A stretch of 64,000 nt of DNA, from the NCBI GenBank assembly GCA_964568145.1, contig CAZMOZ010000002.1:178849-242848 (forward strand). The letters run 5' to 3'. Under the pieces are notes generated by a model, which ran no database searches, was not told the DNA's origin, and saw nothing but the letters and a program-made list of their open reading frames with translations. This document shows, one piece after another, positions 7,627 to 59,028 of the stretch (position 1 is the stretch's first letter; every line of letters begins with the position of its first letter). A program made the translations under genes and the position numbers. The stretch comes from an uncultured Verrucomicrobiota bacterium. GTDB taxonomy: Bacteria; Verrucomicrobiota; Verrucomicrobiia; Limisphaerales; J093.

Positions 7627-8499
7627 TCATCGGGCAAAGCCCGGACCGTTAAGAACTTCGTTGGGATACGGCGCGTTGAGGTAGCCCATGAATTTCTTCA
7701 TCTTGATGTACTGGGCCGTGCCTCCCACCGTGCCCACCATGGCGCCGCCGCCCCGCTCGGAGTTGTCCCGGTAAACGCCGCCGGCGTGGCGCTGGGACAC
7801 GATTTCACCCGCGGTCTGGGGGTTGTTGCCCGCGTCGTTGAAGTAGAACCCGTTCACCTCGTTCTGCTCCCACAGGATGATGTCCGTCGGGTTGAAGTCC
7901 GTCGTGCGGAACGTCTTGCCACTGGTGATGATGCCGGCCCGGGGACCGCAATAGCCGCCCACCGTGCCGTTCATGCAGTACGATGTGATCTTCACGTAGC
8001 GGTCTTTCCACCACTGCTTGAACTGCCCGCGCGAACGGTCCGCGATGTCCTTCGGACACCACATCACCTGGTGCGTGGCCAGAAACGGCCCAAGCTGGCC
8101 GATCTTGAAAAACTGCACCTGGTTGCTGAACTGCGCCGAATTCTCGAAGTAGCCCGCCGCGCTGGGAATGTACTGCGGTCCGCCAGGAAACCGGCCGTCG
8201 TTCCTGACCGCGTAGGCCCAGCCGTCGGGACCGCCGTTGGCCGTGCCATCCACCGAGCCCCAAGTCGGGTGCGGCAGGTAATCCCGGTTGTCCGTCGCGT
8301 ACATGTGGACAGCCAGGAGGATTTGTTTGACGTTGTTCACGTCAATTGTGGACTGGGCCCGGTCCTTGGCCCGTCCCAAGGCGGGCAGGAGCATGCCCGC
8401 CAGGATCGCGATGATCGCGATGACCACTAGCAGCTCAATCAGGGTGAATCCACCCGGATGGCTGGGACCGGTCCGTTTGGAGGTTTCAGGTTTTGTCAT
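7627..8499 (-). CDS. Prepilin-type N-terminal cleavage/methylation domain protein (paralog of 6495-7388)
   Basis: I chose the internal ATG at 8497-8499 ([41 protein letters not shown]). The track ORF start at 8565 adds 22 non-homologous residues. Confidence 0.85.
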
Positions 8500-8558
8500 A
8501 TGCAAGTAGCAAGGGTTCGCTGTGAGAAGTGGTAGCCGAGCCCCGGCCGCAACGCAAG

Positions 8559-8576
8559 TGTGCATTGCAACGCACA
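8559..8576 (-). promoter_or_regulatory. Conserved leader palindrome TGTGC-N8-GCACA, 60 nt upstream of the pseudopilin start
   Basis: tgtgcattgcaacgcaca, the paralogous copy of 7447-7464. Confidence 0.3.
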
Positions 8577-17006: not shown

Positions 17007-18356
17007 TCAATCCGCCGGCCCGGTGAGCGGCTCGGACTGGTCGCGCAGTTCGGGCAGCCGCAGCGCCACGAGCGCCGCCGGCAGGAACAGACAGCCCGCC
17101 AGCAGCAGCGTCAGGCGGTAATCCCCCACCTGGCCGAACAGGCCGAAGAACACCACGCCCACCGCCGACACCACGCGGCCGATGTTGTAGCAGAAGCCGG
17201 CGCCGGTGGTGCGCAGCAGCGTCGGAAACAACGGCGGCAGGTACATGGTGTAGAGCGCGAACAGGCCCTGGAAGAAGCCCGGCACGGCCAGCAGGTAGTA
17301 CAGCCGCGCGTGCGGCCACTCGACTGCGTAGCAGCCCAGCATCGCCAGAAAGTAGCCTAGCGACATGGCTGCGATGACGCGGCGGTAGCCGAAGTGCCGC
17401 GCGAACGCCGCCGCCACGAAGTTGCCCAGGATCGAGGACACGATCACCAGGTTGAGGATCGCCCGGCCCCAGTCCGCCTTCTCGCGGTCGCTGAGGCCGA
17501 TCACGTCCGGCAGGTTCTTGAACTGAATCTGGTTCCAGAACATGAACGCCCAATGACCGGTGAGGCCCAGCGCGCACACGGCGATCACCAGCCAGGTGGT
17601 GCGCCGCACCCCGCCGCGGAACAGGTCGCGCACGCGGGGCGTTTGCGCCGCGCGCTCGGCGCGGGCCCGGGCCGCCGTCCATTCCGCCGTCTCCGGCACG
17701 GCGCGGCGAATCCACAGCACGAGCAGAGCGGGCAGGATGCCCACCAGGAAGAGCCAGCGCGGTTGCTCGGCGACCAGCGGCGCCATGAGCAGGTGCGCCA
17801 GGACGGCCAGGAGGATGCCGACGTTGACGCCGGTTTGCAGCACGGCGGCGATCCACGGCCGCCAGTGCCGGGGCCAGGTCTCGGACAGCAACGACGCGCC
17901 CACCGCCCATTCGCCGCCGATGCCCAGCGCGGAGAGGAAGCGAAACAGGCCGAGCTGCCACCAGGTTTGCGCTGTGGCGGACAGGCCGGTGAAGACGGCG
18001 TAGGTCAGAATCGTGAGGCAGAGCGTCCGGCTGCGGCCCAGGCGGTCGCCGATGCGCCCGAAGAACCCGCCGCCCAGCGCCCAGCCCAGCAGGAAGAGCC
18101 CCTGGATGATCGAACCGTAATGGCCGACGGCGGGGTCCTTGGTGTTCGTCACGCCCAGCAACTCCGCCACGAACTGCACGTACACCAGCGTGTACAGGTG
18201 CATCTCCAGACCGTCGAAGGTCCAGCCCAGCCACGCGGCGATGCCGGAGCGCCATTGCTGCGACGAGAGATCGCGGAGGCGGCGGACCGGGCGGGTGGCG
18301 TCCGCGGGCTGCGGGGCGGCCGGGGCTGTGGGCTTGGGCACGCCGGAGGGAAGCAC
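17007..18356 (-). CDS. MFS transporter
   Basis: About 12 hydrophobic segments and a GRIGDRLGRSRTL motif-A-like loop. GTG start. Confidence 0.9.
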   Translation of the reverse strand: MLPSGVPKPTAPAAPQPADATRPVRRLRDLSSQQWRSGIAAWLGWTFDGLEMHLYTLVYVQFVAELLGVTNTKDPAVGHYGSIIQGLFLLGWALGGGFFGRIGDRLGRSRTLCLTILTYAVFTGLSATAQTWWQLGLFRFLSALGIGGEWAVGASLLSETWPRHWRPWIAAVLQTGVNVGILLAVLAHLLMAPLVAEQPRWLFLVGILPALLVLWIRRAVPETAEWTAARARAERAAQTPRVRDLFRGGVRRTTWLVIAVCALGLTGHWAFMFWNQIQFKNLPDVIGLSDREKADWGRAILNLVIVSSILGNFVAAAFARHFGYRRVIAAMSLGYFLAMLGCYAVEWPHARLYYLLAVPGFFQGLFALYTMYLPPLFPTLLRTTGAGFCYNIGRVVSAVGVVFFGLFGQVGDYRLTLLLAGCLFLPAALVALRLPELRDQSEPLTGPAD

Positions 18357-18500
18357 AAGACGGCGATTCGCTCAACCCCGGCCGGAAGCCGGGCCGGAAG
18401 CCAAAACTCAGGAGTTCGAATTTGGAAAGCAGGAAAGCAGGAAACTGAAATCCGAAGTCCGTAATCCAGAGTCCAAAGTCTGAAGTCCGAAACCTGACTC
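18222..18500. repeat. Direct repeat A (5' end of the MFS gene plus its upstream region)
   Basis: Near-identical to 22193-22446 from ccagcccagccacgcggcgatgccggagcgccattgctg through tttggaaa.caggaaagcagg, then degenerate. Confidence 0.85.
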
Positions 18501-19548: not shown

Positions 19549-20341
19549 TCAGGGCCACACCAGAAAGTTGCGGCTCCAGTAGAATCCGACGTTCTTGTAG
19601 CTGAAAAATGACTCGCCCACGCTCACCTGCGGTTCTGACGGCGTCCAGCCGTTGCTGCCGTAGGTGTATTCCACATAGCTGCCACCGACCATGCGCCGCA
19701 CCTTGTCGCCCTGCAACACCGGGAAGAGCAGATCGGTGGTCACCCGGCCCGCTTGGGGAATGATCGAGCTGCGAAGCGTCCACCCGTTGTCCACCGGGTT
19801 TGCCCCGTAGCCTTGAACCACCTGGCCGACGAAGGTTAACCCGGCCGGCCCGCCCGGCGGATTGCGGAAGAGAATGCCTTCACCGGGCGTCACGGTCATG
19901 TTCGGGTCGCTCCACTCACCAAGATCAAAAGTGTTGGCCGTCCAACCGGTCGGACCGTATTTGTAAACGGCCGTCCCATCGGGAACACCGGGAAACAGGG
20001 CAACCACCCGATTGTCAGCAGCCGAAAGCGGGTTGGCAATCAGCGCATCTCCCGCGGGGACGGACACGTCAACATAGCCGACGACATTGCATGAGTTTTG
20101 GCGCGGCGGGCCGGAAATCATCGCTCGGTAGAAGGCCTTGCCACCTGAGGCGCCGGAGTCAACATAGTCATAGCTTCCTGCACCAGAAAGAGTAACGTTG
20201 GCGTAACCGGGGACCCATGTCGCCAGATCAGCCGACCGGTCAACCCTTACCTGAGCCGACGCCGGGCCGAGAATTCGAGCACGGAATTGGCTTGCCGGAC
20301 GCTGCAACGTGTTGAGATCGAAGCTTAAACTGGGGGGGGGG
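19549..20341 (-). CDS. Frame-shifted C-terminal continuation of the subtilase (FYR module plus an unknown ~200-aa beta-rich domain)
   Basis: The reading frame becomes meaningful only after the C11 tract at 20332-20342 (APPPSLSFDLNTLQ...KAFYRAMISG...). There is no ATG or GTG with an RBS at the switch. The track ORF part upstream of 20342 overlaps the peptidase out of frame. Confidence 0.5.
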
Positions 20342-22049
20342 GCGCCGTGGGCGGCGGAAAGACCAGCCGGCAGGTGAGTTTGACGGTACCCGCTGCGCCG
20401 TTGTAACCATCCACCGCGACGTGATATGTGGTACCCGGGATCGGGTCGAAGTACACCCGGCTGGTACCACAGCCCCCGGCGTTCGAGGTCACCAAGGTCA
20501 AGGTGGAGACTGAAGTTCCGGTGTAAACCGCAAGCAAGGTGTTGAAACCACTGCCTTCGGTGGACAGCTCCGTGCAGCATTCTTTCCACGCGGTAAATCG
20601 AAACCAGACGGAGCGGCCCCCTGCGTTCCCGGTGTGGTTGGGTTCCCCGGGTTCTTTGGTGGCGTTGACGTTGTTTGCGACCGCCGTTACCCGATCGGCG
20701 TTGAACGGCTGGTTGATCCAGATTGCCTTGGGAAAGTTGTCATTGCCTGGTGGGCGCGGAGGCCAGGTAACCGCGAAGGCGCCGGACAGACTCAGGCGTC
20801 CACCGCTCTGGGAATTGGTCGCGGAGCCGGCGAGGGGATCAACCGTGCTGAGCAGCCGGTTTTTGTGTTCAAGGTACGATTCATACGGGAAGTAGCTCCT
20901 CACCAGCGCCAGCGCCCCGGTGACATGCGGGGCCGCCATTGAGGTGCCGTAAAACCAATCGTAGGCACTGGTCGTTGCGTGGGTCGTCGAATACACACCG
21001 TTCGTTCTGGGCGTGTTCTCCGGAGGCTTGTCACCTCCCGGCGCCCCAAGATGGGCATACGCGGTGCCATGTGCGGAGTAGCTGGCAAGGGTGTCATTGC
21101 GTGTGGTCGCAATGACAGTCAGGATGTTATCCACATGAAAACAAGCTGGCCAATTCCGGGCGTCGTCCAAGTCATATGAGTTGTTACCTGCTGCGGCCAC
21201 AAATAAAATCCCCTGGTTCCGGGCCGCTGCAATGGCCTCCCGGAGAGACTCACTTCCCGCGGTTCCCCAACTCGCGTTAATAATGTGAGCTCTCTTAGCT
21301 ATAGCGTAGTTTACGCACTCGATCGCGTCGGAGACGTCGCCTTCACCAGCTTGGTTCAAAAACTTCAATGCCATCAGTTGCACGCTCCAAGCCACTCCGA
21401 CTACACTGATTCCATCATTGCCACGGGCACCGACGATCCCCGCCACATGACTGCCGTGCCCGCGGTCGTCCATCGGATTACCACTACCAGTGATGGCGTT
21501 GATCCCATAAATGTCGTCCATATAGCCATTACCATCGTCGTCAACGCCGGGTGTCCCGTTCAGCTCGGCCGGGTTCTTCCACATGTTGGCCGCCAGGTCC
21601 TGATGATCATGGCGGATGCCGGAATCAATGACCGCCACGATGATGTTGCCGGCGTCGCGTTTCGTGTCCCAGCCTTCCGGGGCGTCAACGTCGGCGTCCG
21701 CCACCCCACCGTGCCGTCCGGTGTTGTGGAGATTCCACAGCGTCTGGTCGGTAAATTTGGGGTCGTTGGGGTATGTTGCCGCCTCAACGACAGCGTAATC
21801 CGGCTCGGCATACTCAACCAGACCGCTGCTGCGGAAGACGGCGAGGGCCTGTTCAACGGTCATCCCTCGGGGCAATTCCACCACTTCGATGTTACCTATT
21901 CGCTCCCATTTTCTGAGGATGCGCGTACCAAATCGGGTGTGCAAGTTCCCGAGGTTGGGCACGGCGGGTTTGACCAGAATCCGATCGGGGCGATACCGCA
22001 ATGTTTGTTGAGTTTCAGCGTCGAAGGGCAGCCCGAATACAGCAATCAA
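20325..22049 (-). CDS. Subtilisin-family (S8) serine peptidase, catalytic portion
   Basis: Catalytic triad contexts AVIDSGI (Asp), HGSHVAG (His) and GTSMAAPHVTG (Ser). The annotated start is TTG with no signal peptide (see frameshift findings). Confidence 0.85.
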   Translation of the reverse strand: MIAVFGLPFDAETQQTLRYRPDRILVKPAVPNLGNLHTRFGTRILRKWERIGNIEVVELPRGMTVEQALAVFRSSGLVEYAEPDYAVVEAATYPNDPKFTDQTLWNLHNTGRHGGVADADVDAPEGWDTKRDAGNIIVAVIDSGIRHDHQDLAANMWKNPAELNGTPGVDDDGNGYMDDIYGINAITGSGNPMDDRGHGSHVAGIVGARGNDGISVVGVAWSVQLMALKFLNQAGEGDVSDAIECVNYAIAKRAHIINASWGTAGSESLREAIAAARNQGILFVAAAGNNSYDLDDARNWPACFHVDNILTVIATTRNDTLASYSAHGTAYAHLGAPGGDKPPENTPRTNGVYSTTHATTSAYDWFYGTSMAAPHVTGALALVRSYFPYESYLEHKNRLLSTVDPLAGSATNSQSGGRLSLSGAFAVTWPPRPPGNDNFPKAIWINQPFNADRVTAVANNVNATKEPGEPNHTGNAGGRSVWFRFTAWKECCTELSTEGSGFNTLLAVYTGTSVSTLTLVTSNAGGCGTSRVYFDPIPGTTYHVAVDGYNGAAGTVKLTCRLVFPPPTAPPPPV

Positions 22050-22192: not shown

Positions 22193-22327
22193 CCAGCCCA
22201 GCCACGCGGCGATGCCGGAGCGCCATTGCTGCGACGAGAGGTCGCGCAGGCGGCGGACCGGGCGGGTGGCGTCCGCGGGCTGCGGGGCGGCCGGGGCTGT
22301 GGGCTTGGGCACGCCGGAGGGAAGCAC
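22193..22327 (-). pseudogene. Truncated duplicate of the MFS transporter 5' end (first ~43 codons)
   Basis: MLPSGVPKPTAPAAPQPADATRPVRRLRDLSSQQWRSGIAAWLGW is identical to the start of the 17007-18356 product. Homology stops at 22193. Confidence 0.8.
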
Positions 22328-22446
22328 AAGCTGGCGATTCGCTCAACCCCGGCCGGAGACCGGGCCGGAAGCCGAAACTCAGAAACTCAGGAGTTCGAAT
22401 TTGGAAATCAGGAAAGCAGGCAGACGAAGTCCAAAATCCGAACCTG
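22193..22446. repeat. Direct repeat B (copy of the MFS 5' end plus upstream region)
   Basis: Aligns to 18222-18500. By-eye differences are a few substitutions and an 8-nt aaactcag duplication. Confidence 0.85.
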
Positions 22447-22470
22447 GTGGGGCGAGACTCCGTCGAGCCC
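22446..22470 (+). repeat. R3 core GGTGGGGCGAGACTCCGTCGAGCCC
   Basis: Exact 25-mer, also at 47038-47062, inverted at 36752-36776, and near-exact at 46938-46961 and 56790-56813. Followed by a GGTTCGT-type word tail. Confidence 0.6.
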
Positions 22471-29600: not shown

Positions 29601-32600
29601 CAGGGTCACCGTGGTCAGCGTCGTGGCGGGATCGAGCCGGTAGCGCAGTTGCACTGACGCGATGCCGTCGGGGTCGGAGACGCGGCAGGTCACGCGCACC
29701 TGCTCGTTGGCGGCGGGCAATGGCGGGTTGTGGGCGACGTCGTAGATGGCCGGGCCGGCGTTGGCCACGCGGCGGCTGTTGGCCTGGCCGGGCGTGCCCA
29801 GATTACGCGGCACCGTGAGGTTCGCCGCCAGTTCGAGGCCGTTGCCGTGCAGGCGGAACAGCGCCTGCGGCCAGCCGGCCAGCCAGCGGACCCTGGCCCG
29901 GAGGGTGACTTCCGAATTGCCCGGCAACGTGCTGCGCAGGGAGTTGCGGAGCGAGTTCGGGCCGGGGTCGCCATCGCCCTGGGCGCGGACGCGCAAGCAG
30001 TTGGCGCCGCTGGCCGCGCCCGAGGACACCACGGCGGAGGTGCTGTGGTTCCCGCTCAACACCCAGCCGGTGGTGCCGTTTTCAAAGCCGCCGTTGTTGA
30101 CCACATTGGTGCTGCCCACGCGGAAGGCCTCGATGTCATCCACCAGGCACTCGCCCGCGCCGAGCAAGGTCACGTGCAGACGGTTGGCCGTGCCATTGGC
30201 GTTGTCCACCCGGCCAGTAAACTCGACGGTCGTCCACGGCGCTTTGGCCGTCTCGTCGCTGTCCGCCCAGTTCGCCGGCTGAAGCAGGTCGGCGCGCGGG
30301 TCAATCAGTTCCAAGCTCGACCCGCCGCCGTCGGCCCACTCCCCCCACCGGCCGCCATCGCCGTAAGTGACCTCGGATACCACGACGTGGATGAGGTTGG
30401 TTTCCACCTGGCCGACGGTGTTGGTGGTCAGGATCGTGACCGGCTTGCCGAGGGCCAGCCGCTCGCCGCGGTTGCTCAACTGCCCGGCGTAGTCGCCAAG
30501 GCAGTTGGCAGTGGTCAACTGCGGATAGTTCGCCCGCAACTGCGCGGCGTTCTTCGCCACCACGAGGTAACCGCCGGCCGGCAGCGTCGTGTTGTTCGGG
30601 AAGGTGTAATCCACGCCGGTCACGAACCGCCAGCCGGCCAGGATGACGGGCGTGGCGCCGCGGTTGTGCAGCTCGATGAACTCGTCGTTGTTCTCGCCCG
30701 TGATCGGGTTGTACATCAGCTCGTTGATGACCACGGCGTCCGCGCGCCACGCGGCGTTGGCCGCGCCCGGCGTGGGTTGCGCCAGCCGCCGGATCGTGGC
30801 CGCGCCGTCTGGCGAGCGCCCGCTGGCGACGCCGTTTTCCTGGCCGCCAAAGCGGAGGGCATCCAGCACGCGGGTGCCGGCGGCGTTGACGAGGTAAATC
30901 GTCTCGCCCGCGGCGTTCAGCGCGAAGCCAAGCTGGCTCTGGTCCACGGACAGAAAACCACGCGGCTCGAGGAACGTGCCGGCGGGGAAGCGGAAGCGGT
31001 TCGTGGCCGGGTCATCGGTCAAGACCATGCCGGACACGTCCACCCGCTCGTTGGAGCGGTTGTGCAGCTCGATGAAGTCCAGCACCGGATCGTCCGTGTG
31101 GGCGAGGAATTCGTTGATGACCACGCGGGTTTCGGGCGCGGGAACGGTGGGGTCGAGCGTGCCCGGCGACCCGCCGATGAACTCGCAGGCCGCCCAGGCG
31201 CGCGGGTCGTTTTCGCCGTAGCTGGGCCGGGCGAGCACGAGCGAGTGGCCGGCACCGTCGGCCGACACCGGCCAGGGCGGGTTGTCCGAGTACTCGACTT
31301 CGAGCCGGATGGCGTTGGCGTTGTTCCGCAGGCGGATCAGGCCGCCTTCGTTGGCCAGCGCGCCCGTGTAAGGCCCGAGCACGTTCGTGATGCCGTACAC
31401 GGCCTTGAGGTCGTCCGGAACCGCGGCGATGACGACGGTTTCGCCGGCCTGGAGGCGGAACCCGGCGGGGAAGTCGAAGTTCACCTCGCCGGTGATCCGC
31501 CAGCCGGTCAGGTCTTCGAACACGGAGCGCGCGTTGTGGACTTCCAGAAACTCGAGGTTGCGGCCGTCGGTTCTCGGCGCGGGGTGGTACATGATCTCGC
31601 TGAAGATCATGCCGGTGGCGCGGCTGGACGGGCCGACCGGCTCCTTGGTCAGACCCGGGGCGCCGGTGGTGGCACTCACTGTGGGGCCGATGTCGCGGAA
31701 CCGCGCTGTGGCGAGCACCTTCTCGTTGTCGCTGCTGACCGCGAAGCCGAGGTACACGCTGTTCGGCACGCCGGTGAGCGTGGCCGAGCCGAGCAGCGTC
31801 CAGACACGGCCGTCCAGGCTGGCGTAGCCGGTGAAGGTGTTGCCCACGCGCTGCAGCCGCAGCCAGGTGTGCGGGTAGTTCACCGGAAAACCGTTGCGGG
31901 GCGCGGCGGTGGTGGCGCTGGCGCCCAACGTGCCCCGCGATTCAAAGAAACAACCCAGTTGCGGCGAGGACGCGAACGCCGCAGCAAACCGGACGTTGGC
32001 CTCGAGGCTCTCCCGCGCCATGAGCCCGGCGTGGAGAAACGGGTCGCTGATCGTGACGCCTTCGAGCCGCGCCTGGAAATCGAAGTTCCCGGACCGTTGC
32101 TGCCAGCCGAACTGGAACTGGTCCGCGGTGCCGCCGATCGTCTTGCCCGCGCCGGTCACATCCACGCCGCCGGGCACCGAAAGCGTGTTGCCGGCCAGGG
32201 TGGGCGAGCCGATGTCCACCGGCGCGTACTCGGCCGCCACGAAGGTGATCTTCGAGTTCGGGGCGATGGTGTTCGGGGTCTGGGCGTTGTCCCTCACGTT
32301 GTTCACGGTGAGCGTGTAAGTCGTGCCGTAGGTCATGGCCGACGTGACCAGCACCACCGTGTCCGGGCTGGCACCCGGGCTGGCGCCGCTCACCGTGACG
32401 CCGTTGTTGAGCTGGTAATTGCCGGGCTGGGTGGCCGAAGCCGCCTGGACGGCCTCGCTGAAGGTCACGACCAGTTGCGTGGTGCCCACATTTTGGACAC
32501 CCGCCAGCGTCGGCGGGATGGTGTCCGGCGTGACGGTCAACACGGCTTCCGAACTGGTTGCCGTGCCGAGGTTGTTGGTCACGACACAGCGAAACCGTGC

Positions 32601-33359
32601 GTTGTGGTCTGTCATTTTGACCGGGCCGTAAGCCAAGTCGGGCGAGGTGGCTCCGGCAATCGGCGAGCCGTTCCGCTGCCACTGGTAGCTGTAAAGCCCC
32701 ACTGTGGAAAGCCGCACGCGGAAGCTGGCGATGCCGCCCTCGACCACGGTTGTGTTGGTGGGGTGCTCCGTGATGACCGGCGCGGAGAAACTGACGCCGT
32801 ACGGCAGGAGGTTCGTGGCCACAATCGGCGCCTGGTCGGTGCCGTCCGGCATTCGCCAGCGCACGGCCAGGTTGTCGCCGCCCCAGCCTTCCTTCATCAG
32901 GGCGGAGATGTAGTAGGCCCTGCCCGCCTGCAGTGTGATGGACTGGGATTGCTGGTTGGGCTCCCGGGTCCATTCCCGCGAGGAGGTCCAGCCGGACACC
33001 CAGGCGATCTCCCGCGCCTTGGCCGGGTCTTCATCCGTGCTGAGCAGCAGTGACCCGGCGTCGTCGCTGGCGATCCAGAAGGTGTAACCGCCGGTCCGCG
33101 GAGCGATGATGTAGCCGTGCAGCCGCTGGCCGTATTCGTCCAGCACGTCGGTGGGCGCCTCAAAGAGGTCGGTGACGTAATTCGTGGTGGTGGGGCGGTT
33201 TGGGAAGTCCGGATGGCCGGTCAGGTCGGTCATGACGACGCCCGGGATGCCCATCCAGACCTCGCGCAACACGCCGTTGGCCGGCGGGTTGGCGGCGTGG
33301 GTGGCGGCGGCTGAAAACAGCAACAATCCGATGGCGGTCAAGCGGTTCAGATGCTTCAT
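23697..33359 (-). CDS. Giant (~3,220 aa) secreted multidomain protein: PA14-like, Ig-like, at least 8 lamin-tail domains, CotH kinase-like domain, 4 cadherin/dystroglycan-type repeats, jelly-roll, C-terminal FYR module
   Basis: Start MKHLNRLTAIGLLLFSAAATHA at 33357-33359. PA14-like region ~32850-33285. CotH ~28540-29425 (YMRLYFNG, WDIDFVFG). LTD motif INE...ELxN...L.GW.L repeated. Cadherin-like region ~25420-26570. Confidence 0.9.
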   Translation of the reverse strand: MKHLNRLTAIGLLLFSAAATHAANPPANGVLREVWMGIPGVVMTDLTGHPDFPNRPTTTNYVTDLFEAPTDVLDEYGQRLHGYIIAPRTGGYTFWIASDDAGSLLLSTDEDPAKAREIAWVSGWTSSREWTREPNQQSQSITLQAGRAYYISALMKEGWGGDNLAVRWRMPDGTDQAPIVATNLLPYGVSFSAPVITEHPTNTTVVEGGIASFRVRLSTVGLYSYQWQRNGSPIAGATSPDLAYGPVKMTDHNARFRCVVTNNLGTATSSEAVLTVTPDTIPPTLAGVQNVGTTQLVVTFSEAVQAASATQPGNYQLNNGVTVSGASPGASPDTVVLVTSAMTYGTTYTLTVNNVRDNAQTPNTIAPNSKITFVAAEYAPVDIGSPTLAGNTLSVPGGVDVTGAGKTIGGTADQFQFGWQQRSGNFDFQARLEGVTISDPFLHAGLMARESLEANVRFAAAFASSPQLGCFFESRGTLGASATTAAPRNGFPVNYPHTWLRLQRVGNTFTGYASLDGRVWTLLGSATLTGVPNSVYLGFAVSSDNEKVLATARFRDIGPTVSATTGAPGLTKEPVGPSSRATGMIFSEIMYHPAPRTDGRNLEFLEVHNARSVFEDLTGWRITGEVNFDFPAGFRLQAGETVVIAAVPDDLKAVYGITNVLGPYTGALANEGGLIRLRNNANAIRLEVEYSDNPPWPVSADGAGHSLVLARPSYGENDPRAWAACEFIGGSPGTLDPTVPAPETRVVINEFLAHTDDPVLDFIELHNRSNERVDVSGMVLTDDPATNRFRFPAGTFLEPRGFLSVDQSQLGFALNAAGETIYLVNAAGTRVLDALRFGGQENGVASGRSPDGAATIRRLAQPTPGAANAAWRADAVVINELMYNPITGENNDEFIELHNRGATPVILAGWRFVTGVDYTFPNNTTLPAGGYLVVAKNAAQLRANYPQLTTANCLGDYAGQLSNRGERLALGKPVTILTTNTVGQVETNLIHVVVSEVTYGDGGRWGEWADGGGSSLELIDPRADLLQPANWADSDETAKAPWTTVEFTGRVDNANGTANRLHVTLLGAGECLVDDIEAFRVGSTNVVNNGGFENGTTGWVLSGNHSTSAVVSSGAASGANCLRVRAQGDGDPGPNSLRNSLRSTLPGNSEVTLRARVRWLAGWPQALFRLHGNGLELAANLTVPRNLGTPGQANSRRVANAGPAIYDVAHNPPLPAANEQVRVTCRVSDPDGIASVQLRYRLDPATTLTTVTLRDNGTQGDELAGDGIYSGLLPGRGDGTLVAFRIIATDAAGTPASSTFPAGRFTEAGTQGQECLVRWGEVIPFGTFAHYHLWHTQATGNARQNALDNTWRDCTLVYGNYRVIYNTGFRDKGSPYHGGAGDIAATTPRDEPLLGTFDRVFASTGNGGSESTGIRSQLAAWYAQQLGIPYLHAHYMRLYFNGRPFRPDIMEDLEQPNHDYAEKWFPTDDEGDLYKVAVWFEFNDDNRGFNATGATIQRFTTTGGAYKLARYRWNWQRRSNDGDANNFAQFFDLVSAINDTSGSYVPRVLQQADMEQWMRAFCFDYAMGNWDAWTYNVGQNMYLYRPAAQRWVLIPWDIDFVFGLGDGTSAPLRGGGQDPTMSRAYTTPAFQRMNWRAYQDTINGPFLPENFQPQIDARRSALVKNGVTGITGPTAITTWINSRRNVIANQLNAADAKVFEITTNGGADFESPSPTVTLGGSAPFAVATIEVNGIPYPLTWSNVRTFNLTVPLTGVTNRLTLVGKDLRGNVVAGASDTIEVRYTGAIERLEDFVVINEVHYDAAAGELASTFIELFNRSFNTPFDLSGCVLQGVGYTFPAGAIIAPRSYLLLVGNRAGFEAVYGRNLPVFAEFTGSLDNDGERLALIKPGVAQQPDRLITDLRYWDRLPWPTNAAGLGPSLQLVDPDQGSWRVANWAATAANATDRTTPGRANSIAQTLPAFPPVWLNEVQPNNVAGPRDGAGDRDPWIELYNAGTNAVDLSPFYLTDSYTSLMRWQFPAGTTLGPGQFLVVWADGEPAESKPGELHTNFRLAPATGVVAFTRQQGSPTAPAVMDYVEYTQLSAGRSVGSYPDGEPRQRRQFVEVTPGAANNPALPTLLVRLNEIMAANTRTLADPADEDFDDWFELYNAGAAPADLSGYTLTDALDAPGRYTIPPGTVIPAGGFLLVWADGETGQNAPGRELHVNFSLARDGEQLGLFDLNGVLVDAVTFGGQADDVSIGRYPDGAAEPLFEMATPTPRQPNYLEGGNRPPVFTAIPAQAVGEGAALRFTAKANDPDAGQTLRYSLGPDAPPAATIDEVTGQFVWTPAEADGPGRVSFLIFATDNGTPQRIGSVRVAVDVAEVNLPPVLPVIPDQVADEGTLFTLQLAASDPDLPPNRLVFSLGPNAPEGATLSEDGGFAWTPSEALGSSTTNVNVRVTDDGQPPLSDARTFLIAVREIPNPPDVPFIDPQFVDEGATFQLQVTATDPDMPPSPLRFSFDQAPSGASIHPDTGLITWPTSEANGPTNAIFVVRVSEVNPPNQTTARTFSVNVRELNEAPALAPIADRTVSEGTLLVITNTATDSDLPPQRLTFSLAPGAPAGAGIDANSGVLTWAIGADAGPGTNVITVRVTDDAEDVKTASQTFTVVVVAEPKIVINEIMYRPAVTGAEYVELHNASTNTTWDLSGWLLTGTRYLFPAGTRLTPSGFLVVARDTARFTTAYGARTNLLGNYVNELGPDGGVIELYRSSAPTPETRVDRVAFRATAPWPAAANGQGPSLQLIDPAQDNARVANWAAVTRQSTNASRNLIPIEAGWRYWEAAEDPAPGWTNRGYSDTAWPSGKALLYVEGADLPAAKNTPLTLGQMSYLFRARFNFDGNPEGASLVLNTVLDDGAVFYLNGRPIYWLGMAEGEIPQRDTPATRTVGDAAYEGPFTIPVDNLRAGENVLAVEVHQTNPGSSDIVFGVSVDVLEVRRESYTPGYANSVRGKLEPFPAVGLNEVLAVNQTGIRDNAGDRDPWIELANYGAAPAVLDGWYLSDSYAALAKWPFPPGASLAAGQFKLVWADAEQGETTAAEWHTNFRLAVPAGVVVLSRLQNGQPAVVDFLEYSGLGADQSFGYPAPRLEDSMAAKLGSPTPGAANQTAPPQTPRVTGIQLGQAGEVTLRWTAVAGRGYRVEAAAALASDPWRNAGQVTATGPEAAFTDTGHNGAPAQYYRIVLLP

Positions 33360-33605
33360 GGCAATTCCGAAATCCCGGGGACCGTATGATCCCTGGCGGC
33401 GTCCGAGTGCGTCACGCGGCTGTAACACAATGTCGGAAAACAGCAAGTCACAAGCCAGGAAACCCGCCTGAGCCGGTTTGAGCGGCGTGCGTCCGGCGGA
33501 AAGCCCGGTCAGGCTCGCATCCGGATTCTTCATTGGGCGGACGGGGTAAAACAACCCTCCTTGCGACACCCGCCGCACCGGCGTGTAAACGGGAAATAAA
33601 AGGTA

Positions 33606-33633: not shown

Positions 33634-33688
33634 CCACGCCGTAGTTAACGGAGCGTTGTGGCCAACGCCGCAACCAAGGGAACAAACT

Positions 33689-34177
33689 ATGAACCTAAAA
33701 CACCTAGCACTCGGCGCGGCGCTGGCCACCACCAGCAGCTTTGCCGGGATCATCATTCAGGAAGCCGATGCGGCGACCACGTTCGCATTGACCCTGAAAT
33801 GGAGTCCGGAAAGTCCGAATCCGGAGTCAACGTCAGATGCGACCGGCGCCTGGCACTGGGACGTGAAGTTCACCAAGACCGCGACCCATGTCATCGCCGA
33901 CTTCAACGGCACGCATGTGCTTCCGCTCGGCCAGACGTTCAGCACCACGCTGAGCGTTCCGCTGACCGGTGGTTCGGCGGCGGACTTCGACATCCTGGAC
34001 GACATCACCAGCTACGACGCTTGGAATGCCAGCCTGCAGCGGAATCCCCAGTTCCTGCCGCTGGTGTTCAACGTTGGCGCGGGACATGTCATTGTGCCGG
34101 AAGCGCGGGAATACGCCCTCCTTGCCGGGCTCGGTCTGGTGGGCTTCGGCGCCTGGCGCCGTTTCCGCAAGTCTTAA
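33689..34177 (+). CDS. PEP-CTERM-type sorting-domain protein (PEA variant), paralog 1
   Basis: Signal MNLKHLALGAALATTSSFAG. C-terminus VPEAREYALLAGLGLVGFGAWRRFRKS. ATG at 33689 (the track ORF starts upstream at 33533). Confidence 0.8.
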   Translation: MNLKHLALGAALATTSSFAGIIIQEADAATTFALTLKWSPESPNPESTSDATGAWHWDVKFTKTATHVIADFNGTHVLPLGQTFSTTLSVPLTGGSAADFDILDDITSYDAWNASLQRNPQFLPLVFNVGAGHVIVPEAREYALLAGLGLVGFGAWRRFRKS

Positions 34178-34211
34178 GCGCGGTCCGTCAACACGCACTT
34201 GAGATTTTCAC

Positions 34212-34243
34212 GGCGCGGGTTCTGACCCGCGCCTTTTGCTTTT
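34212..34243 (+). terminator. Rho-independent terminator
   Basis: GGCGCGGG-ttctga-CCCGCGCC followed by TTTTGCTTTT. Confidence 0.65.
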
Positions 34244-34286
34244 CTGGCGGGGTTCGCCGGCTGACCCGGCTGCGGCAAGGCGGTTC

Positions 34287-34351
34287 AACCCGAACGCCGA
34301 GGTTGGCCGTAGCGCAGTGCGTCCCGCCTGCTCAACTTCGGTTTTCGGGTT
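34287..34351. repeat. R1 REP-like hairpin element, copy 3
   Basis: aacccgaacgccgaggttggccgtagcgcagtgcgtcccgcctgctcaacttcggttttcgggtt. Confidence 0.75.
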
Positions 34352-34563
34352 CAAACCGCCGGCCTTGGGCGGAGCACTTGGGACCGCTCGCAAGAGGTTT
34401 TCCGGGGCGGCTGCGCTGAGTGGAATCGCCGTCTGCCACCCCTGTCGTTGCCGTTCACCCGCCCATTGATCCGCTAAAGGGATTGTCCGTGTGGTGGTTA
34501 CCTCATTTCAAACAACGCTCATCCGGGGCCATCATCAACGATTTACTTCATGAATAAAATAAG

Positions 34564-34591
34564 TTGACAGACCCCAGCCAGTGATTACTTT
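34564..34591 (+). promoter_or_regulatory. Candidate sigma70-type promoter of PEP-CTERM gene 2
   Basis: TTGACA, 16 nt, TACTTT in an AT-rich patch, about 52 nt upstream of the ATG. Confidence 0.35.
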
Positions 34592-34643
34592 ACGCGGCGT
34601 GTGACGGACCGTTGCGGCCTTAACGCAACCAAGGGAACAAACT

Positions 34644-35135
34644 ATGAACCTAAAACAACTAGCACTCGGCGTGGCGCTGGCGACCACCAGCAGCCTCGCG
34701 GGAATCATCATTCAGGAGAGCGATGCGGCAAACACGTTAGCGCTGACCCTGAAATGGAGTCCGGAAAGTCCGAATCCGGAATCAACGTCAGATGCGACCG
34801 GTGCCTGGCACTGGGACGTGAAGTTCACCAAGACCGCGACCCATGTCATCGCCGACTTCAACGGCACGCATGTGCTTCCGCTCGGCCCGACGTTCAGCAC
34901 CACGCTGAGCGTCCCGCTGACCGGTGGTACCGACGCGGACTTCGACGTCCTTCTTGATCCGCCGTGGGGCTATGACATCTGGAACGCCAGCCTGCAACGG
35001 AATCCAAGTTTCCTGCCGTTGGTGTTCAACGTCGGAGCGGCGCAGGTCATTGTGCCAGAAGCGCAGGAATACGCGCTGCTTGCGGGGCTTGGCTTGGTGG
35101 GTTTCGGCGCCTGGCGCCGTTTCCGCAAGGCCTGA
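34644..35135 (+). CDS. PEP-CTERM-type sorting-domain protein (PEA variant), paralog 2
   Basis: Roughly 85% identical to paralog 1 by eye. C-terminus VPEAQEYALLAGLGLVGFGAWRRFRKA. Confidence 0.8.
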   Translation: MNLKQLALGVALATTSSLAGIIIQESDAANTLALTLKWSPESPNPESTSDATGAWHWDVKFTKTATHVIADFNGTHVLPLGPTFSTTLSVPLTGGTDADFDVLLDPPWGYDIWNASLQRNPSFLPLVFNVGAAQVIVPEAQEYALLAGLGLVGFGAWRRFRKA

Positions 35136-35166
35136 CCCCAGCACGTCAACTCATTTGAACACGCAC

Positions 35167-36751: not shown

Positions 36752-36776
36752 GGGCTCGACGGAGTCTCGCCCCACC
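36752..36776 (-). repeat. R3 core (inverted copy) with a GGTTCTTGGTT word tail
   Basis: gggctcgacggagtctcgccccacc is the reverse complement of GGTGGGGCGAGACTCCGTCGAGCCC. Confidence 0.6.
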
Positions 36777-46937: not shown

Positions 46938-46961
46938 GATGGGGTGAGACTCCGTCGAGCC
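46938..46961 (+). repeat. R3 core, degenerate copy
   Basis: gatggggtgagactccgtcgagcc followed by ggttcgtggttcatgaacc words. Confidence 0.55.
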
Positions 46962-47037: not shown

Positions 47038-47062
47038 GGTGGGGCGAGACTCCGTCGAGCCC
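47038..47062 (+). repeat. R3 core GGTGGGGCGAGACTCCGTCGAGCCC
   Basis: Exact 25-mer, about 100 nt after the previous copy. Confidence 0.6.
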
Positions 47063-47269: not shown

Positions 47270-48079
47270 ATGCGACCGCGCGCGCTTCAGCGATCAGCCG
47301 TCCGGGCCGGGACACCGTCCGGCTGGCATTGGCGGCTGTCCACCGCCGGCCCTGATCCGGCTCGCAGCCGGCCAGGCCAGCACGGATTCACCTTGATCGA
47401 ATTGCTGGTGGTGATCGCGATCATCGCCGTGCTGGCGGGCTTGCTGTTGCCGGCCCTGGGCCGGGCAAAGGCGCGGGCCCAGGTGACCTTCTGCCAGAAC
47501 AACGAACGCCAGCTTGCGTTGGCGCTGACGCTTTACGCGCACGACCACCGCGGGGTGTTCCCGCCGCGCGCCGACCAGAACCGCTGGCCCACACAGCTCC
47601 AGCCCGGCTACCAGGATGTGAAGGTGCTGCTCTGTCCGAACGATGCGACCAACCGCGCCCGCCGCGCCGCCAGTCCCGGCGCGCGGCCGCCCGCGCCGGA
47701 CGCGGCGCCGCGCAGCTTCATCATCAATGGCTGGAACGATTACTTCCAGGAGGTGCTGCGTCTGCCCTTTTCGGCCATCGGCGGCAAGAGCATAACCGAG
47801 AGCGCCATCACCAAACCCGGCGAGACCATCGTCTTCGGCGAGAAGGTCACGGGCTCGGAGCATTTTTACATGGATTGCTTCGAGGGCCAGGGCAACGACG
47901 TGGACCAGATCGAACGCGCGCGGCACCTGAGCGGTGGCCGGCAGTCGAATGTGGGTTACTCGAATTACGCCTTCGCCGACGGCAGTTCGCGGCTCGTGAA
48001 GCGCGGCCAGCTTCTTTACCCGCTCAATCTCTGGATGGTCACCGATTACTGGCGCACCAACCGCGTCTTCAGCAAATAG
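47270..48079 (+). CDS. Prepilin-type N-terminal cleavage/methylation domain protein (DUF1559-like, H-X9-DG-type C-terminus)
   Basis: [25 protein letters not shown] and a C-terminal ...[13 protein letters not shown]. Confidence 0.8.
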
Positions 48080-51981: not shown

Positions 51982-52087
51982 CGGCGCCCGGAGCAGCCCA
52001 CCTTTAGGCTTTGCGGAGCTTCCGGCCCGGTTATACTACGCGACGGGTCGCTTTGCCGCGCCCCGAGTGCAATCAACCACCAAAATT

Positions 52088-53053
52088 ATGCCACTCACAC
52101 ACACCCGAGACCTGTTCGCCAAGGCCCTCAAGAGCAAATACGCCCTGGGCGCCTTCAACGTGAACAACATGGAATTGCTCCAGGCCATCGTCGAGGCCTG
52201 CGAGGAGGAAAAGGCGCCTGTCATCCTGCAAATCTCCAAGGGTGCCCGCCAGTACGCCAACCCGGTGTACCTGAGGAAGCTCATCGAAGCCGCCATCAGC
52301 GTCACCAACATCCCCATCGCCGTCCACCTTGACCACGGCGACTCCTTCGAGCTGTGCAAACAGTGCATTGATGAAGGTTTCACCAGCGTCATGATTGACG
52401 GCAGCCACCTGCCCTTCGACAAGAACGTCGAACTCTGCAAGCGGGTCGTGGAATACGCCCACAAGCACAACTGCGTGGTGGAAGGCGAGCTGGGCCAGCT
52501 CGTGGGCGCTCAGCACGACGACGGCGAGGAAGGCGGCGGTTACTCGAAGGGCGGCGTGTACACGCACCCGGACGAGGCGGTGCAGTTCGTGAAGCTGACC
52601 GGCGTGGACTCGCTCGCCGTGGCCATCGGCAACTCGCACGGCGCGTACAAATTCAAAGGCGAGCAACACCTCGACATCGAGCGGCTCAAGGCCATCAAGA
52701 AGGCCCTCATTGACGCCGGCCTGGGCGATTACCCGCTCGTCCTGCACGGCGCCTCCAGCGTGCCGAAGGACATCGTCCGCGAGATCAACCAGCACGGCGG
52801 CAAGCTGGGCGAAGACACGGCCGGCGTGCCCGAGGCTGACATCGAGATTGCCCGCCGCACCGGCTGCACCAAGGTGAACATTGACACCGACCTGCGGCTG
52901 GCCATGACCGCCGCCATCCGGCGGGTCTTTGCGGAAAACCCGAAGGAGTTCGATCCGCGCAAGTACCTCGCCCCCGCCCGGCAGAAGGTGAAGGAACTGG
53001 TCCGGCACAAGGTCAAGAACGTCCTGTGCTGCGCCGGCCACGCGTTTGACTGA
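52088..53053 (+). CDS. fba: Fructose-bisphosphate aldolase, class II
   Basis: GAFNVNNME, VILQISKGA, VHLDHG, VEGELG and GNSHGAYKF motifs. I prefer the ATG at 52088 over the GTG at 52067. Confidence 0.93.
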   Translation: MPLTHTRDLFAKALKSKYALGAFNVNNMELLQAIVEACEEEKAPVILQISKGARQYANPVYLRKLIEAAISVTNIPIAVHLDHGDSFELCKQCIDEGFTSVMIDGSHLPFDKNVELCKRVVEYAHKHNCVVEGELGQLVGAQHDDGEEGGGYSKGGVYTHPDEAVQFVKLTGVDSLAVAIGNSHGAYKFKGEQHLDIERLKAIKKALIDAGLGDYPLVLHGASSVPKDIVREINQHGGKLGEDTAGVPEADIEIARRTGCTKVNIDTDLRLAMTAAIRRVFAENPKEFDPRKYLAPARQKVKELVRHKVKNVLCCAGHAFD

Positions 53054-56416: not shown

Positions 56417-56789
56417 GACGGGTAGCAATTGAGCGCGCCTTTGACGGCATGACCAGTTCGCGTCCCCGCGGTTCCGAAACCTCGCAGCCGGCGAGCGACG
56501 CGCTGCCGAGCGAGTGGCGGCGCCGGCGTGAGTTCATCGCTGTGGGGAGTCTCAGGACTACTAACCCTGGACGGTCATTTGTGCAAGGCCGGCTTTTGCG
56601 AAGCACCTGGCGGGAGCATCCCCGTTTCGCGCAGGTCGTTCTTGCCCTGGTGGAGCGGAACTCGTCGAGCCAGCAGTTAAACGCGGAAAGCGGATTATGT
56701 TCCTGGTTCTTGGTTCTTGGTTCCTGATCTGAAAACTGAGGACTGAGGACTGAAGATTGCGGACTACGGCCTTGGGCCTTCGACTTCCC

Positions 56790-56813
56790 GGTGGGGCGAG
56801 ACTCCGTCGAGCC
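56790..56813 (+). repeat. R3 core copy abutting the aroC-end remnant
   Basis: ggtggggcgagactccgtcgagcc, preceded by GGTTCTTGGTTCTTGGTTCC and GAGGACTGAGGACTGAAG word arrays. Confidence 0.6.
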
Positions 56814-56821
56814 ATGCCTTT

Positions 56822-56908
56822 TCACCCGCACTGGGCGTGGTGCCGCAGGGCGTGGTCGGCCAGCACCAGCTCGGTCATGGCCTCCACCATCGCCACGGCG
56901 CGGGACAG
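56822..56908 (-). pseudogene. Displaced duplicate of the aroC 3' end (last ~28 codons plus stop)
   Basis: 87 nt align to 57949-58035 with 5 mismatches (hand alignment), beginning exactly at the stop codon. Encodes ...[23 protein letters not shown]. Confidence 0.8.
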
Positions 56909-56973
56909 GGTGGGCGCGTTCACCTCACTGGCTCGCCAAGCCAAGCGCTTCCGACGGCGATCGGAACTTGAAG

Positions 56974-57897
56974 TCAAAACTCCAGCGTCCGGCACTTTTC
57001 GTCGAGCGCGGCGATGATGCGCTGAACCTGCGCGGGCTCGAGCTTGTGCGGCCGGCCTCGCAGGTAACCTGCCAGATACTTGTCGTTCATGGTTCTGGCC
57101 ACGCTTGACGACGAGGCTTGTTCAACATACCAGCCAGGCACAACCACCAGCGCCTCCGCCACGACTTGCTCGCCGGTTTTCCTGGTCAGGTACTGAGCCA
57201 CTCAGCGAGCGTTGCGCACCGCTTGAGGGATTGTCTTGCGGTCTTCCCAGTTGGGAAACGACAGCCTGTCGCCATTCTGGACGACCTTGTATTGCGGCTT
57301 GCCGGCGCGGGAGAGCGGCTTGCTCCGCGTTTTCGTCTCAAGCACAAACACCCCTCGTGTACCGACACAGACATGATCCACGTTCCAGTCCCCGTCGCCA
57401 GGCAGGTCGTGGAACGTTCGATAACCTTCATCGGCCACTTCCGCCAGGATCTCCCCCACCGCCTGCTCCCCGCGCAACCCTAGCCGCAACTGTCGAGTTT
57501 CATTCCTTAGCCGCACCAAGCGAATGAGTAGCCAGGTGCCAAGCCCAATGAAGAAAAGTATCATGACCAACGACACCAGGCCGATCTTGTGGACCAAGAG
57601 GAATCGGGTAGCCGGTAGCAATGCCGGCAACGAGCCGACGGCAATACCCCAGCAACCGAGTGCGGCCAACAGCCAAACGGTAAATTTGTCGAACACCTCG
57701 TCGAGTCGCAGCATCAGGGAATAGCCCGGGGGTCGGAGTAGCTTCTGAGTGGTGGGTGGGTTTCGCTGTTTGTCCCGATGCTTGTCCACTACCTCAATTT
57801 TGAGCCAAATCGCAACAAGTGGTACGGACAAACCAACCAAAAAGGGCAGGCCGGCTTTCAATTGGGCCGGCCAGTCAAACGCAGCTAGTGTTGTCAT
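56974..57897 (-). pseudogene. Membrane-anchored NERD (nuclease-related domain) protein gene interrupted by an in-frame TGA
   Basis: MTTLAAFDW... with three hydrophobic helices, then the NERD core GEQAVGEILAEVADEGYRTFHDLPGDGDWNVDHVCVGTRGVFVLETK. A TGA at 57202-57204 is followed in the same frame by 75 more codons (VVVPGWYV...). Confidence 0.75.
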
Positions 57898-57948
57898 GCC
57901 GGGCGGACTTTCCGAAACACACCCGGCTGAGGAAAGCAAACTGTTGGA

Positions 57949-59028
57949 TCACCCGCACTGGGCGTGGTGCCGCAAGGCGTGGTCGGCCAGCACCAGCGCG
58001 GTCATGGCCTCCACCATCGGCACGGCGCGCGGCAGCACACAGGGATCATGGCGGCCGCGGCCTTTGAGGGTGGTGTTCTGGAGGTTCACGTCCACCGTGT
58101 CCTGCTCGTGCATGATGGTGGCCACGGGCTTGAACGCGACGCGGAAGTAGATCGTCTCCCCGTTGCTGATGCCGCCCTGCACGCCGCCGCTGCGGTTGGT
58201 CACGGTGCGCACGCGGCCGCCCACGTTGCGGAAGGCGTCGTTGTGCTCGCGGCCGGTCAGCCGGATGCCCTCGAAGCCCGAGCCGAGGTCGAAGCCCTTC
58301 GCGGCCGGCAGGCTGAGCAGGGCCTTGGCGAGGTCGGCCTCCAGCCGGTCGAACACCGGCTCGCCCCAGCCGGGCGGCACGCCTCGCGCCACGCCCAGCA
58401 CGATGCCGCCCACCGAATCACCTTCCGCGCGCCGCTGCTCGATGAGTTCGATCATGTGTTGCGCGGCCGCCGCGTCCGGGCAGCGCACAATGTTCGACTC
58501 GATCGCGTCGAAGCTCACCTTCTCCGGGTCCACCTCGGCCCGGAGGTCCTGCACTTGCATGACGCAGGCCAGGATTTCCACGCCCCAGCGTTCGCGCAGG
58601 AGTTTCCTGGCGATGGCGCCGGCGGCCACGCGCCCCACCGTCTCACGCGCGCTGCTGCGTCCGCCGCCCGGCCAGGCGCGGATGCCGTATTTGGCCTGGT
58701 AGGTGTAGTCCGCGTGCGAAGGGCGGAACTTGGCGGCCATCTCCGCGTAGGCCTCGGCGCGGGCGTCCTCGTTTTTCACCCACAAGGCGATGGGCGTGCC
58801 GAGCGTGAGCCCCTCGAACGTGCCGGACAGGATTTGCACGGTGTCGCTCTCCTTGCGGGGCGTGACGATCTTCGACTGCCCCGGCCGGCGGCGGTCGAGG
58901 TCCGGCTGGATGTCCGCCTCGGTCAACGGCAGGCGCGGCGGGCAGCCGTCCACCACCGCGCCCACGCCGCCGCCGTGGGATTCGCCCCAGGTGGTGACGC
59001 GGAAGAGGTGGCCGAAGGTGTTTGCCAT
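57949..59028 (-). CDS. aroC: Chorismate synthase
   Basis: [23 protein letters not shown]... full-length AroC pattern. Confidence 0.96.

Follow-up and report, generated by a model that had tools for sequence, protein, structure and literature searches.

A recombination scar behind aroC in an uncultured Verrucomicrobiota genome, with a duplicated gene end on either side of a NERD-domain gene

The aroC locus and its duplicated 3' end

The window analyzed here is a stretch of 64,000 nucleotides (nt) from contig CAZMOZ010000002.1 (assembly GCA_964568145.1, positions 178,849 to 242,848), which belongs to an uncultured Verrucomicrobiota bacterium of the Limisphaerales. Within it, the chorismate synthase gene aroC is followed by a single gene for a NERD-domain membrane protein, and this in turn by a second copy of the last 87 nt of aroC itself. 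Read along the minus strand, the body of aroC and its own tail (copy B) lead into a 51-nt spacer, the NERD gene, 65 nt, the second tail (copy A) and a 33-nt flank; about 360 nt further on come a gene for a beta-helix protein of 1,063 amino acids (aa), a palindrome resembling repetitive extragenic palindromic (REP) elements, and fba. The features of the locus are as follows, where L and P numbers, here and below, are our labels for related sequences.

57949..59028, minus strand: aroC, chorismate synthase, intact, 359 aa (Pfam PF01264 Chorismate_synt over the full length, E 4.7e-135)
57949..58035, minus strand: proximal repeat copy B, the functional last 28 aroC codons and the stop, encoding the conserved C-terminal end
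57898..57948, minus strand: proximal end of the insert, a 51-nt spacer from the aroC stop to the NERD ATG
56974..57897, minus strand: gene for the NERD-domain membrane protein, 307 codons with one in-frame stop (Pfam PF08378)
57202..57204, minus strand: the in-frame TGA, NERD codon 232, at the position of a conserved Trp
56909..56973, minus strand: distal end of the insert, 65 nt from the NERD stop to the distal copy
56822..56908, minus strand: distal repeat copy A, which differs from copy B at 5 sites and is by its sequence what remains of the displaced aroC 3' end, now in decay
56789..56821, minus strand: native downstream flank of aroC, carrying a 24-nt motif, GGCTCGACGGAGTCTCGCCCCACC, at 56790-56813; aligns to the flank in L168, L170 and L171
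53237..56428, minus strand: beta-helix surface-type protein, open reading frame (ORF) of 1,063 aa (1,059 aa in the Joint Genome Institute (JGI) call; Pfam Beta_helix, NosD, DUF1565)
52067..53053, plus strand: fba, class II fructose-bisphosphate aldolase, convergent with aroC and the far boundary of the gap (PF01116, E 6e-100)

The two tail copies, 56822-56908 and 57949-58035, form a direct repeat with 82 identities over 87 nt and a start-to-start spacing of 1127 nt. Both open at TCA, the complement of the aroC stop codon, in agreement with the original prediction, made from the letters of the window, of an 87-nt duplication with five mismatches that starts at the stop; the best chance match in a scan with shuffled tails was 49/87. 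The 1,040 nt between the copies have a GC content of 58.9%, against 70.8% in aroC and 67.3% in the window, and only 1.9% of 1,040-nt windows are as low. Recomputed 60-nt samples give 48.3% (57541-57600) and 63.3% (58081-58140), so the insert is AT-richer to the extent first described (48% and 63%). NERD is the sole gene of the insert and its only Pfam match, and it has the features foreseen for it, namely three long hydrophobic N-terminal helices and an ATG close behind the aroC stop. As also anticipated, the insert encodes no tyrosine or serine recombinase; its one ORF matches Pfam NERD only. Rfam, tRNA and terminator scans of the aroC-NERD locus found nothing, the 65 nt at 56909..56973 hold no terminator-like site, and the predicted fold of 56780-56990 is unremarkable (z = -1.0).

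The repeat and the insert are genuine and not an assembly artefact. An error of assembly or binning might be suspected because the source is a metagenome contig and because one JGI contig, L082, terminates within the insert. However, the Logan assembly of SRR12687342 (L176), an independent run treated with a different assembler, is 100% identical to window positions 58005-54202 and crosses both junctions: it starts within tail B, where it has the bases particular to copy B, passes NERD and tail A and reaches the beta-helix gene. The 246-kb JGI contig L081 carries the window sequence, and L082, from a different JGI sample, is identical to it from aroC into the insert. As the copies differ at five sites and nowhere match over more than 26 bases in a row, assemblers would not be expected to collapse or chain them, and we regard the probability of an artefact as negligible.

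The NERD gene itself is a pseudogene. Its Pfam match (50.6 bits, against a cut-off of 22.1) spans the in-frame TGA, which is plainly present in the frame and which the original prediction had missed. Intact homologues are 297-307 aa long and have Trp at the codon-232 position in at least 90% of cases, so that the change is TGG>TGA. JGI and NCBI gene calls and the Logan contig all show this TGA, and apart from it the 307-codon frame is intact. Since the window copy retains 52 of the 54 positions at which at least 90% of 47 homologues agree, among them D174, E187 and K189 (the D...ExK residues), the knock-out looks recent. The gene has a GC content of 58.5% and a third-codon-position GC content (GC3) of 69.5%, the GC3 of aroC being 93.3%. 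Recoding of the TGA was considered and rejected, as aroC itself ends in TGA and the site corresponds to a conserved Trp, neither Cys nor selenocysteine.

The AlphaFold (AF2) model of P0001, an intact orthologue with 64% identity, has a predicted local distance difference test score (pLDDT) of 89 and consists of three N-terminal helices and an alpha/beta domain. In this model W232 lies in a core helix, and the 75 residues that would be lost to the TGA make up two strands and two helices of the domain. A Foldseek search of the PDB, a check that had been suggested for the NERD protein and that we made with the P0001 model, returned weak matches (best E 0.013), mostly to PD-(D/E)xK nucleases, while a sequence-profile search of the PDB with the NERD protein gave nothing relevant. 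The protein has no PADLOC match and no NCBIfam match, and its family is absent from phage records and has a single distant match in plasmid records. NERD proteins are reported to be frequent in defense islands, and ZwsA, a large soluble protein with VHS, DUF647, NERD and S4 domains, is a defense RNA endonuclease (bioRxiv 10.64898/2026.04.06.716636). The window protein resembles ZwsA and the NERD nucleases in keeping the D...ExK residues in its NERD domain, but unlike ZwsA it comprises 307 aa with three membrane helices at its N-terminus and is not recognized by PADLOC.

The gap between aroC and fba in related genomes

The 80 species-representative genomes closest to the window in aroC (no more than 89% aa identity) had neither a gene order in common with it nor a NERD gene, and they offered no empty site. 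Closer aroC sequences (92-97%) were obtained by protein search, and their surroundings are as follows.

L168/169, aroC 95% identical: PQQ, carB, GH130, aroC, 205 nt, fba, gene for a 616-aa protein; an empty site (gap at 9081-9285 of L168)
L171, aroC 96% identical: the gap holds genes for DarT (Pfam E 4e-53) and for a Macro-domain, DarG-like protein, 6355-8112
L170, aroC 97% identical: as L171 minus 720 bp (a deletion; decayed DarTG), 6205-7520
L172, aroC 92% identical: not syntenic

The window has in common with L168, L170 and L171 the neighbors PQQ, GH130 and aroC on one side of the gap, and fba and the 616-aa gene on the other. On the copy B side, the similarity to these three relatives halts at the last base of the aroC stop codon, and it resumes at tail A, where it takes in the 87-nt tail and 20-33 nt of flank. 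Because the aroC tail and flank of the relatives align to copy A and to 56789..56821, the distal copy is the one that sits on the native flank. Compared with the empty site, what the window has in addition is exactly one repeat unit and the 1,040-nt insert. These comparisons point to an insertion at the 3' end of aroC that displaced the native 3' end, much as had been proposed when a regenerated gene end with its displaced copy was read from the window alone; the empty aroC site, which was then recommended as a thing to look for, is that of L168/169.

The beta-helix segment constitutes a second difference within the gap: it takes up 3.7 kb in the window, L168 has 172 nt in its place, and L171 has DarTG. 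The beta-helix gene, which encodes a choice-of-anchor Q domain and has a native-like GC content of 67.8%, is missing from L168, L170 and L171. No repeats of its own were seen around this segment, and none were found when flanking repeats of the DarTG module of L171 were sought. From the gene orders, the aroC-fba gap is a variable site between conserved core genes, which is empty or holds DarTG, a deleted form of DarTG, or NERD with the beta-helix gene. Defense hotspots flanked by core genes are likewise gaps in which differing cassettes occupy the same place, and the alternative cassette between aroC and fba, DarTG, is a known defense system. A defense role for the NERD gene is circumstantial, as it is based on the presence of NERD proteins in defense islands and of DarTG in the same gap of a sister genome. 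The earlier suggestion of a defense-type cargo thus gains from the DarT-DarG pair of the sister genome, but it is weakened in that the cargo is a pseudogene and has no PADLOC match.

In a tree of aroC sequences, clade W unites the window with L168, L170, L171 and P0122, which have no NERD gene, whereas the other NERD carriers fall in the sister clade (clade N), which also holds the NERD-less L172, L173 and L001. Along the 87 nt, numbered in the direction of the gene, the two tail copies of the window differ at positions 4, 6, 16, 38 and 61, and their final 26 nt, over which both are clade-W-like, are identical. At all five mismatch sites copy B agrees with L168, L170 and L171 (CGCCT), and the aroC tails of other lineages match copy B at 74-85 of 87 nt. 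The changes in copy A fall at first, third, first, second and first codon positions, four of the five being at first or second positions, and three of them would alter residues that are invariant in the relatives (P>S, P>A and A>E). Because they fall on invariant residues, copy A is probably no longer read as protein.

Both copies also carry a synonymous G at aroC nt 1017, which is found in none of L168, L170 and L171 but is present in the more distant L004. The last 400 nt of the window's aroC are 96-99% identical to those of L170/171 and 84-93% identical to those of the NERD-bearing clade N, which rules out a clade-N donor tract within aroC. The shared G, together with the 96-99% identity to L170/171, indicates that the duplicated tail came from the lineage itself or from a conspecific. 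On the simplest reading of these sites the duplication would be later than the split from L170/171, barring gene conversion or a parallel change of the shared G. With a third-position identity of 0.90 between this aroC and those of L170/171, the 5.7% drift of copy A amounts to about the whole of the lineage-specific neutral divergence, and the insertion is therefore not very recent.

Genes of the NERD family are found widely among Verrucomicrobiota, in many settings that have nothing in common, and the broader family is never linked to aroC. In the subclade closest to the window's gene, all eight of the located members lie 33-69 nt after an aroC stop and on the same strand, in three surrounding contexts, as set out below.

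Window: GH130, aroC, NERD, tail A
L083/84: thyA, aroC, NERD, rpmE, prfA
L087: aroC, NERD, rpmE, prfA
L175: aroC, NERD, rpmE (contig ends in rpmE)
L085: M50, aroC, NERD, tRNA, gcvH
L174: aroC, NERD, tRNA (contig ends in tRNA)
L094: M50, aroC, NERD (contig ends inside NERD)

In six other carriers examined there is no second aroC tail after NERD, the best match of 42/87 being no better than null; a full-length NERD of the L094 type, which would reach the distal junction, was sought in the database and not found. A tRNA gene lies within about 90 nt past NERD in L085 (about 7010-7090) and in L174, there at the contig end. Within clade N the NERD tree agrees with the aroC tree. The NERD protein of the window is 61-64% identical to those of the L083 group, and the syntenic L083 and L087 are 60% identical to one another.

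Presence and absence of NERD also differ within clade N, where L094, compared with L173, L001 and L003, provides a second such case among genomes of 92-95% DNA identity. L094 and the NERD-less L173 share 94.7% nt identity over 4.9 kb, and the similarity ends 5 nt past the stop codon. L173 has a gene for a 1,044-aa subtilase 467 nt downstream of aroC; its kinship to a subtilase found elsewhere in the window (see below) was considered and rejected, as the two are 25% identical, a likeness at the level of the family only. In every carrier the GC content of NERD, 58.5-62.6%, is about 6-12 points lower than that of aroC, 68-72%. Because this offset is present throughout, low GC is a property of the NERD gene and no sign of recent arrival, given that carriers with apparently vertical inheritance show it too; the GC argument of the original prediction is accordingly weak.

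Candidate routes of insertion

A second duplication in the window, at a gene for a transporter of the major facilitator superfamily (MFS), bears on the question of mechanism, as the original prediction had assigned it the same architecture as the aroC locus. It consists of the following two copies.

18222..18461, minus strand: proximal copy, the first 135 nt of the MFS transporter coding sequence (17007..18356, minus strand) and about 105 nt upstream of it
22193..22440, minus strand: distal copy, about 95% identical, followed by the 24-nt motif at 22446-22469

This repeat of 240 nt brackets a 3.7-kb segment of 61.5% GC that holds a subtilase gene (20325..22049) and two ORFs without a Pfam match. 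The duplication is thus real, but it involves the 5' end of a gene and its upstream region, not a 3' end, and we sought and did not find any sequence or core common to the two repeats, or to the two inserts or their ends. The 24-nt motif, GGCTCGACGGAGTCTCGCCCCACC or its complement, is sharply bounded at 24-26 nt and occurs five times in the window, against 0.01 copies expected, at 22446-22469, 36753-36776, 46941-46961, 47038-47061 and 56790-56813. A diverged version stands at the orthologous position of L168, and the loci of the other genomes contain no exact 19-mer of it. At the aroC and MFS loci the motif is not oriented the same way with respect to the insert.

We propose, with about even confidence, that the aroC locus is the scar of an integrase-independent, homology-driven insertion that took place through the aroC tail into the variable aroC-fba gap. 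DNA of a closely related strain, in which NERD already lay directly behind aroC, would have entered the cell and recombined through the highly conserved aroC tail, either by a single (Campbell-type) crossover with a circularized fragment of about 1.1 kb, or as a linear fragment with one homologous end and one illegitimate end. Either course would produce the order of aroC body, tail, spacer, NERD, 65 nt, second tail and native flank, and would leave aroC intact while the displaced tail drifted to its five substitutions. NERD would then have been retained for a time before its recent knock-out by TGG>TGA. The 87-nt direct repeats could later excise the insert precisely by homologous recombination, and a deletion of this kind would help to account for the difference in NERD presence among close relatives.

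The donor layout that this proposal requires, with NERD directly behind the aroC tail, is that of the gene's closest relatives in eight of eight cases. That these homologues are linked to aroC without a repeat suggests homology-guided transfer in place of an att site, and a second duplication that shares no core with the first fits a generic route based on homology. A transposon or insertion sequence was rejected as the vehicle, as there is no transposase, the insert ends have no terminal inverted repeats, and the duplication is 87 nt long and not 2-15 bp.

Several observations weigh against the proposal. No donor has been found, the nearest NERD homologue being only 64% identical, and no clade-W genome was found to have a native aroC-NERD pair. 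A stretch of 87 nt is short for recombination of the RecA type, so that such events should be rare. Both distal copies lie at most 10 nt from the same 24-nt motif, which a generic mechanism does not predict. The recombinase scan described below covered, for this genome, the ORFs of the window only. A single crossover and a one-ended event with an illegitimate join are indistinguishable here, and we infer both; at the junction 56908/56909 identity is visible only at the level of CTG/CAG.

The proposed event has parallels in several known systems. In Escherichia coli, most candidate clones for illegitimate recombination at lacZ were single crossovers of circular DNA that arose during conjugation and left duplications of 109-950 bp flanking the insert (PMC3240628). 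These integrations resemble the aroC case in their direct duplication of host-homologous sequence (about 100-950 bp), in the lack of a recombinase encoded by the element, and in that the target gene can stay intact; they differ in that the aroC case is natural, has a homology of 87 nt only, and relies on a hypothetical donor circle. One-ended recombination has been put forward as the source of orphaned 3' ends at type VI secretion system (T6SS) and Rhs loci (PMC5361080), where a conserved segment likewise anchors the incoming DNA and the old end is left orphaned downstream without an integrase. The new 3' end of a T6SS effector-immunity or Rhs locus is, however, a different toxin domain, whereas at aroC one housekeeping sequence makes up both the old and the new tail, and the cargo is a gene of its own. 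In Neisseria, minimal mobile elements are alternative cassettes without mobility genes in gaps between conserved genes (PMC3787668). There too, the gap between the same genes holds varied cassettes or none, and homologous recombination in the flanks is presumed, but these elements leave no duplication, unlike the one-sided event at aroC, which left a scar. Natural transformation is not known for these Verrucomicrobiota.

As the first alternative, which is somewhat unlikely in our estimation, the insert might be a miniature integrative element that lacks its own integrase, either a decayed island or one resembling a cis-mobilizable element (CIME), with the 87-nt repeats as attL and attR, a tyrosine or serine recombinase acting in trans, and the end of aroC regenerated upon entry. 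CIMEs and integrase-less remnants in the 3' ends of housekeeping genes have been reviewed (PMC5704250), and the aroC insert is like CIMEs in its small size, its lack of an integrase and its att-like direct repeat that includes a gene 3' end. Such an origin would accord with the direct repeats that bound the insert, one of them being the 3' end of a housekeeping gene, with the empty sites in relatives, with the recurrence of the NERD subclade at this exact spot in two aroC clades, and with its variable presence among close relatives (the window against L170/171, and L094 against L173). The confinement of all five mismatches to the first 61 nt, with the last 26 identical, would fit a crossover near the stop codon, but it is explained equally well by in-place decay of a non-coding copy.

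The searches for a recombinase speak against this alternative. A Pfam scan of the window's GC3-supported ORFs, two short ones of which were left unscanned, found no integrase, recombinase or transposase and only FtsK, and there is no recombinase among the 25 commonest Pfam families of 120 ORFs that lie, in some 75 related genomes, at most 3.5 kb downstream of aroC. Unlike what is known of CIMEs, no cognate integrase-bearing element was found at aroC, and other carriers of the same cargo, where examined, have no second tail. DarTG occupies the same gap without repeats, and the second locus, with its duplicated 5' end and upstream region and no shared core, would need a different recombinase. 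On these grounds the site-specific integrative element of the original prediction is not supported, nor is a shared route of that kind for the MFS and aroC loci.

A further alternative, which we consider distinctly unlikely, would have the aroC-NERD pair and the tail duplication as ancestral, with NERD lost elsewhere through the repeats, the distal repeat decayed in the other carriers, and gene conversion keeping the copies alike in the window. The agreement of the NERD and aroC trees in clade N is consistent with long vertical co-inheritance, the divergence of NERD between the window and the L083 group (61-64% identity) is like that between L083 and L087 (60%), and the direct repeats offer a route to precise loss. 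Yet the copies are only 5.7% apart, and the synonymous G that they share dates the duplication after the split from L170/171 unless there was gene conversion; no trace of a second tail follows NERD in the other carriers examined; and several independent precise losses would be needed (in L168, L170/171, L172 and L173/L001).

Very unlikely, in our view, is a long target-site duplication made in place, in which staggered breaks 87 nt (and, at the MFS locus, 240 nt) apart, perhaps near the 24-nt motif, would have taken up foreign DNA before repair synthesis closed them. Both copies do derive from the lineage's own sequence, and both duplications end at most 10 nt from the same motif with its five copies against 0.01 expected. 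The motif, however, is oriented differently relative to the insert at the two loci, we know of no bacterial mechanism for target duplications of 87-240 nt, and the process leaves unexplained why the cargo belongs to the one NERD subclade that is always linked to aroC.

Homology-driven insertion, our preferred explanation, can be carried one step further, although we judge this extension to be unlikely. The aroC tail, spacer and NERD gene could together be a recombinase-free cassette, which would leave as a 1,127-bp circle through its 87-nt repeats and re-enter through the aroC tails of related genomes; the MFS/subtilase duplication would then be another outcome of this process, and the 24-nt motif might mark a site prone to recombination. 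If true, this would explain why the NERD subclade is found only behind aroC in rearranged genomes, and why its presence is patchy in two clades.

Other repeats of the window and significance

The window also contains an intergenic family of palindromic elements that resemble REPs or miniature inverted-repeat transposable elements (…AACCCGAAAACCGAAGTTGGC…GCCAACTTCGGTTTTCGGGTT…), each of about 50-70 nt, at 6325, 22578, 34284, 35267, 36073, 39883, 49581, 51796 and 53116. One of these adjoins each insertion locus, and a similar element is present in L171. A tandem duplication at 33669-35150 repeats every 955 nt or so, with 94% identity over 300 nt and 82% over 182 nt; each of its units bears a REP-like element, and a 163-aa ORF without a Pfam match lies inside. 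An ORF of 3,293 aa at 23697-33578 (minus strand) encodes eight lamin-tail domains together with CotH, PA14 and a Rib-like domain. N-terminal methylation (pilin-like) motifs occur in three genes, at 6495-8565 and 47270-48079, and two of these genes are tandem paralogues with a 254-nt stretch at 76% identity.

Taken together, our data show the aroC-NERD insertion to be a real scar of recombination, but a fairly ordinary one, which adds an example to a type of event already known. It is a clean natural case in which a single gene was gained without harm to the adjacent essential gene and with no obvious mobile-element machinery at the site, and its junctions, its empty site and its alternative cargo, DarTG, can all be compared. 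The case also shows that an integrase should not be invoked on the sole ground that a low-GC cargo lies between duplicated gene ends. The exclusive linkage of this NERD subclade to aroC is the one feature worth following up, the case otherwise serving as an annotated example that holds no surprise. If it is true that aroC-NERD moves by borrowed homology, then the aroC tail would act as a portable landing pad, and this would be a simple and possibly widespread route of gene flow in uncultured lineages.

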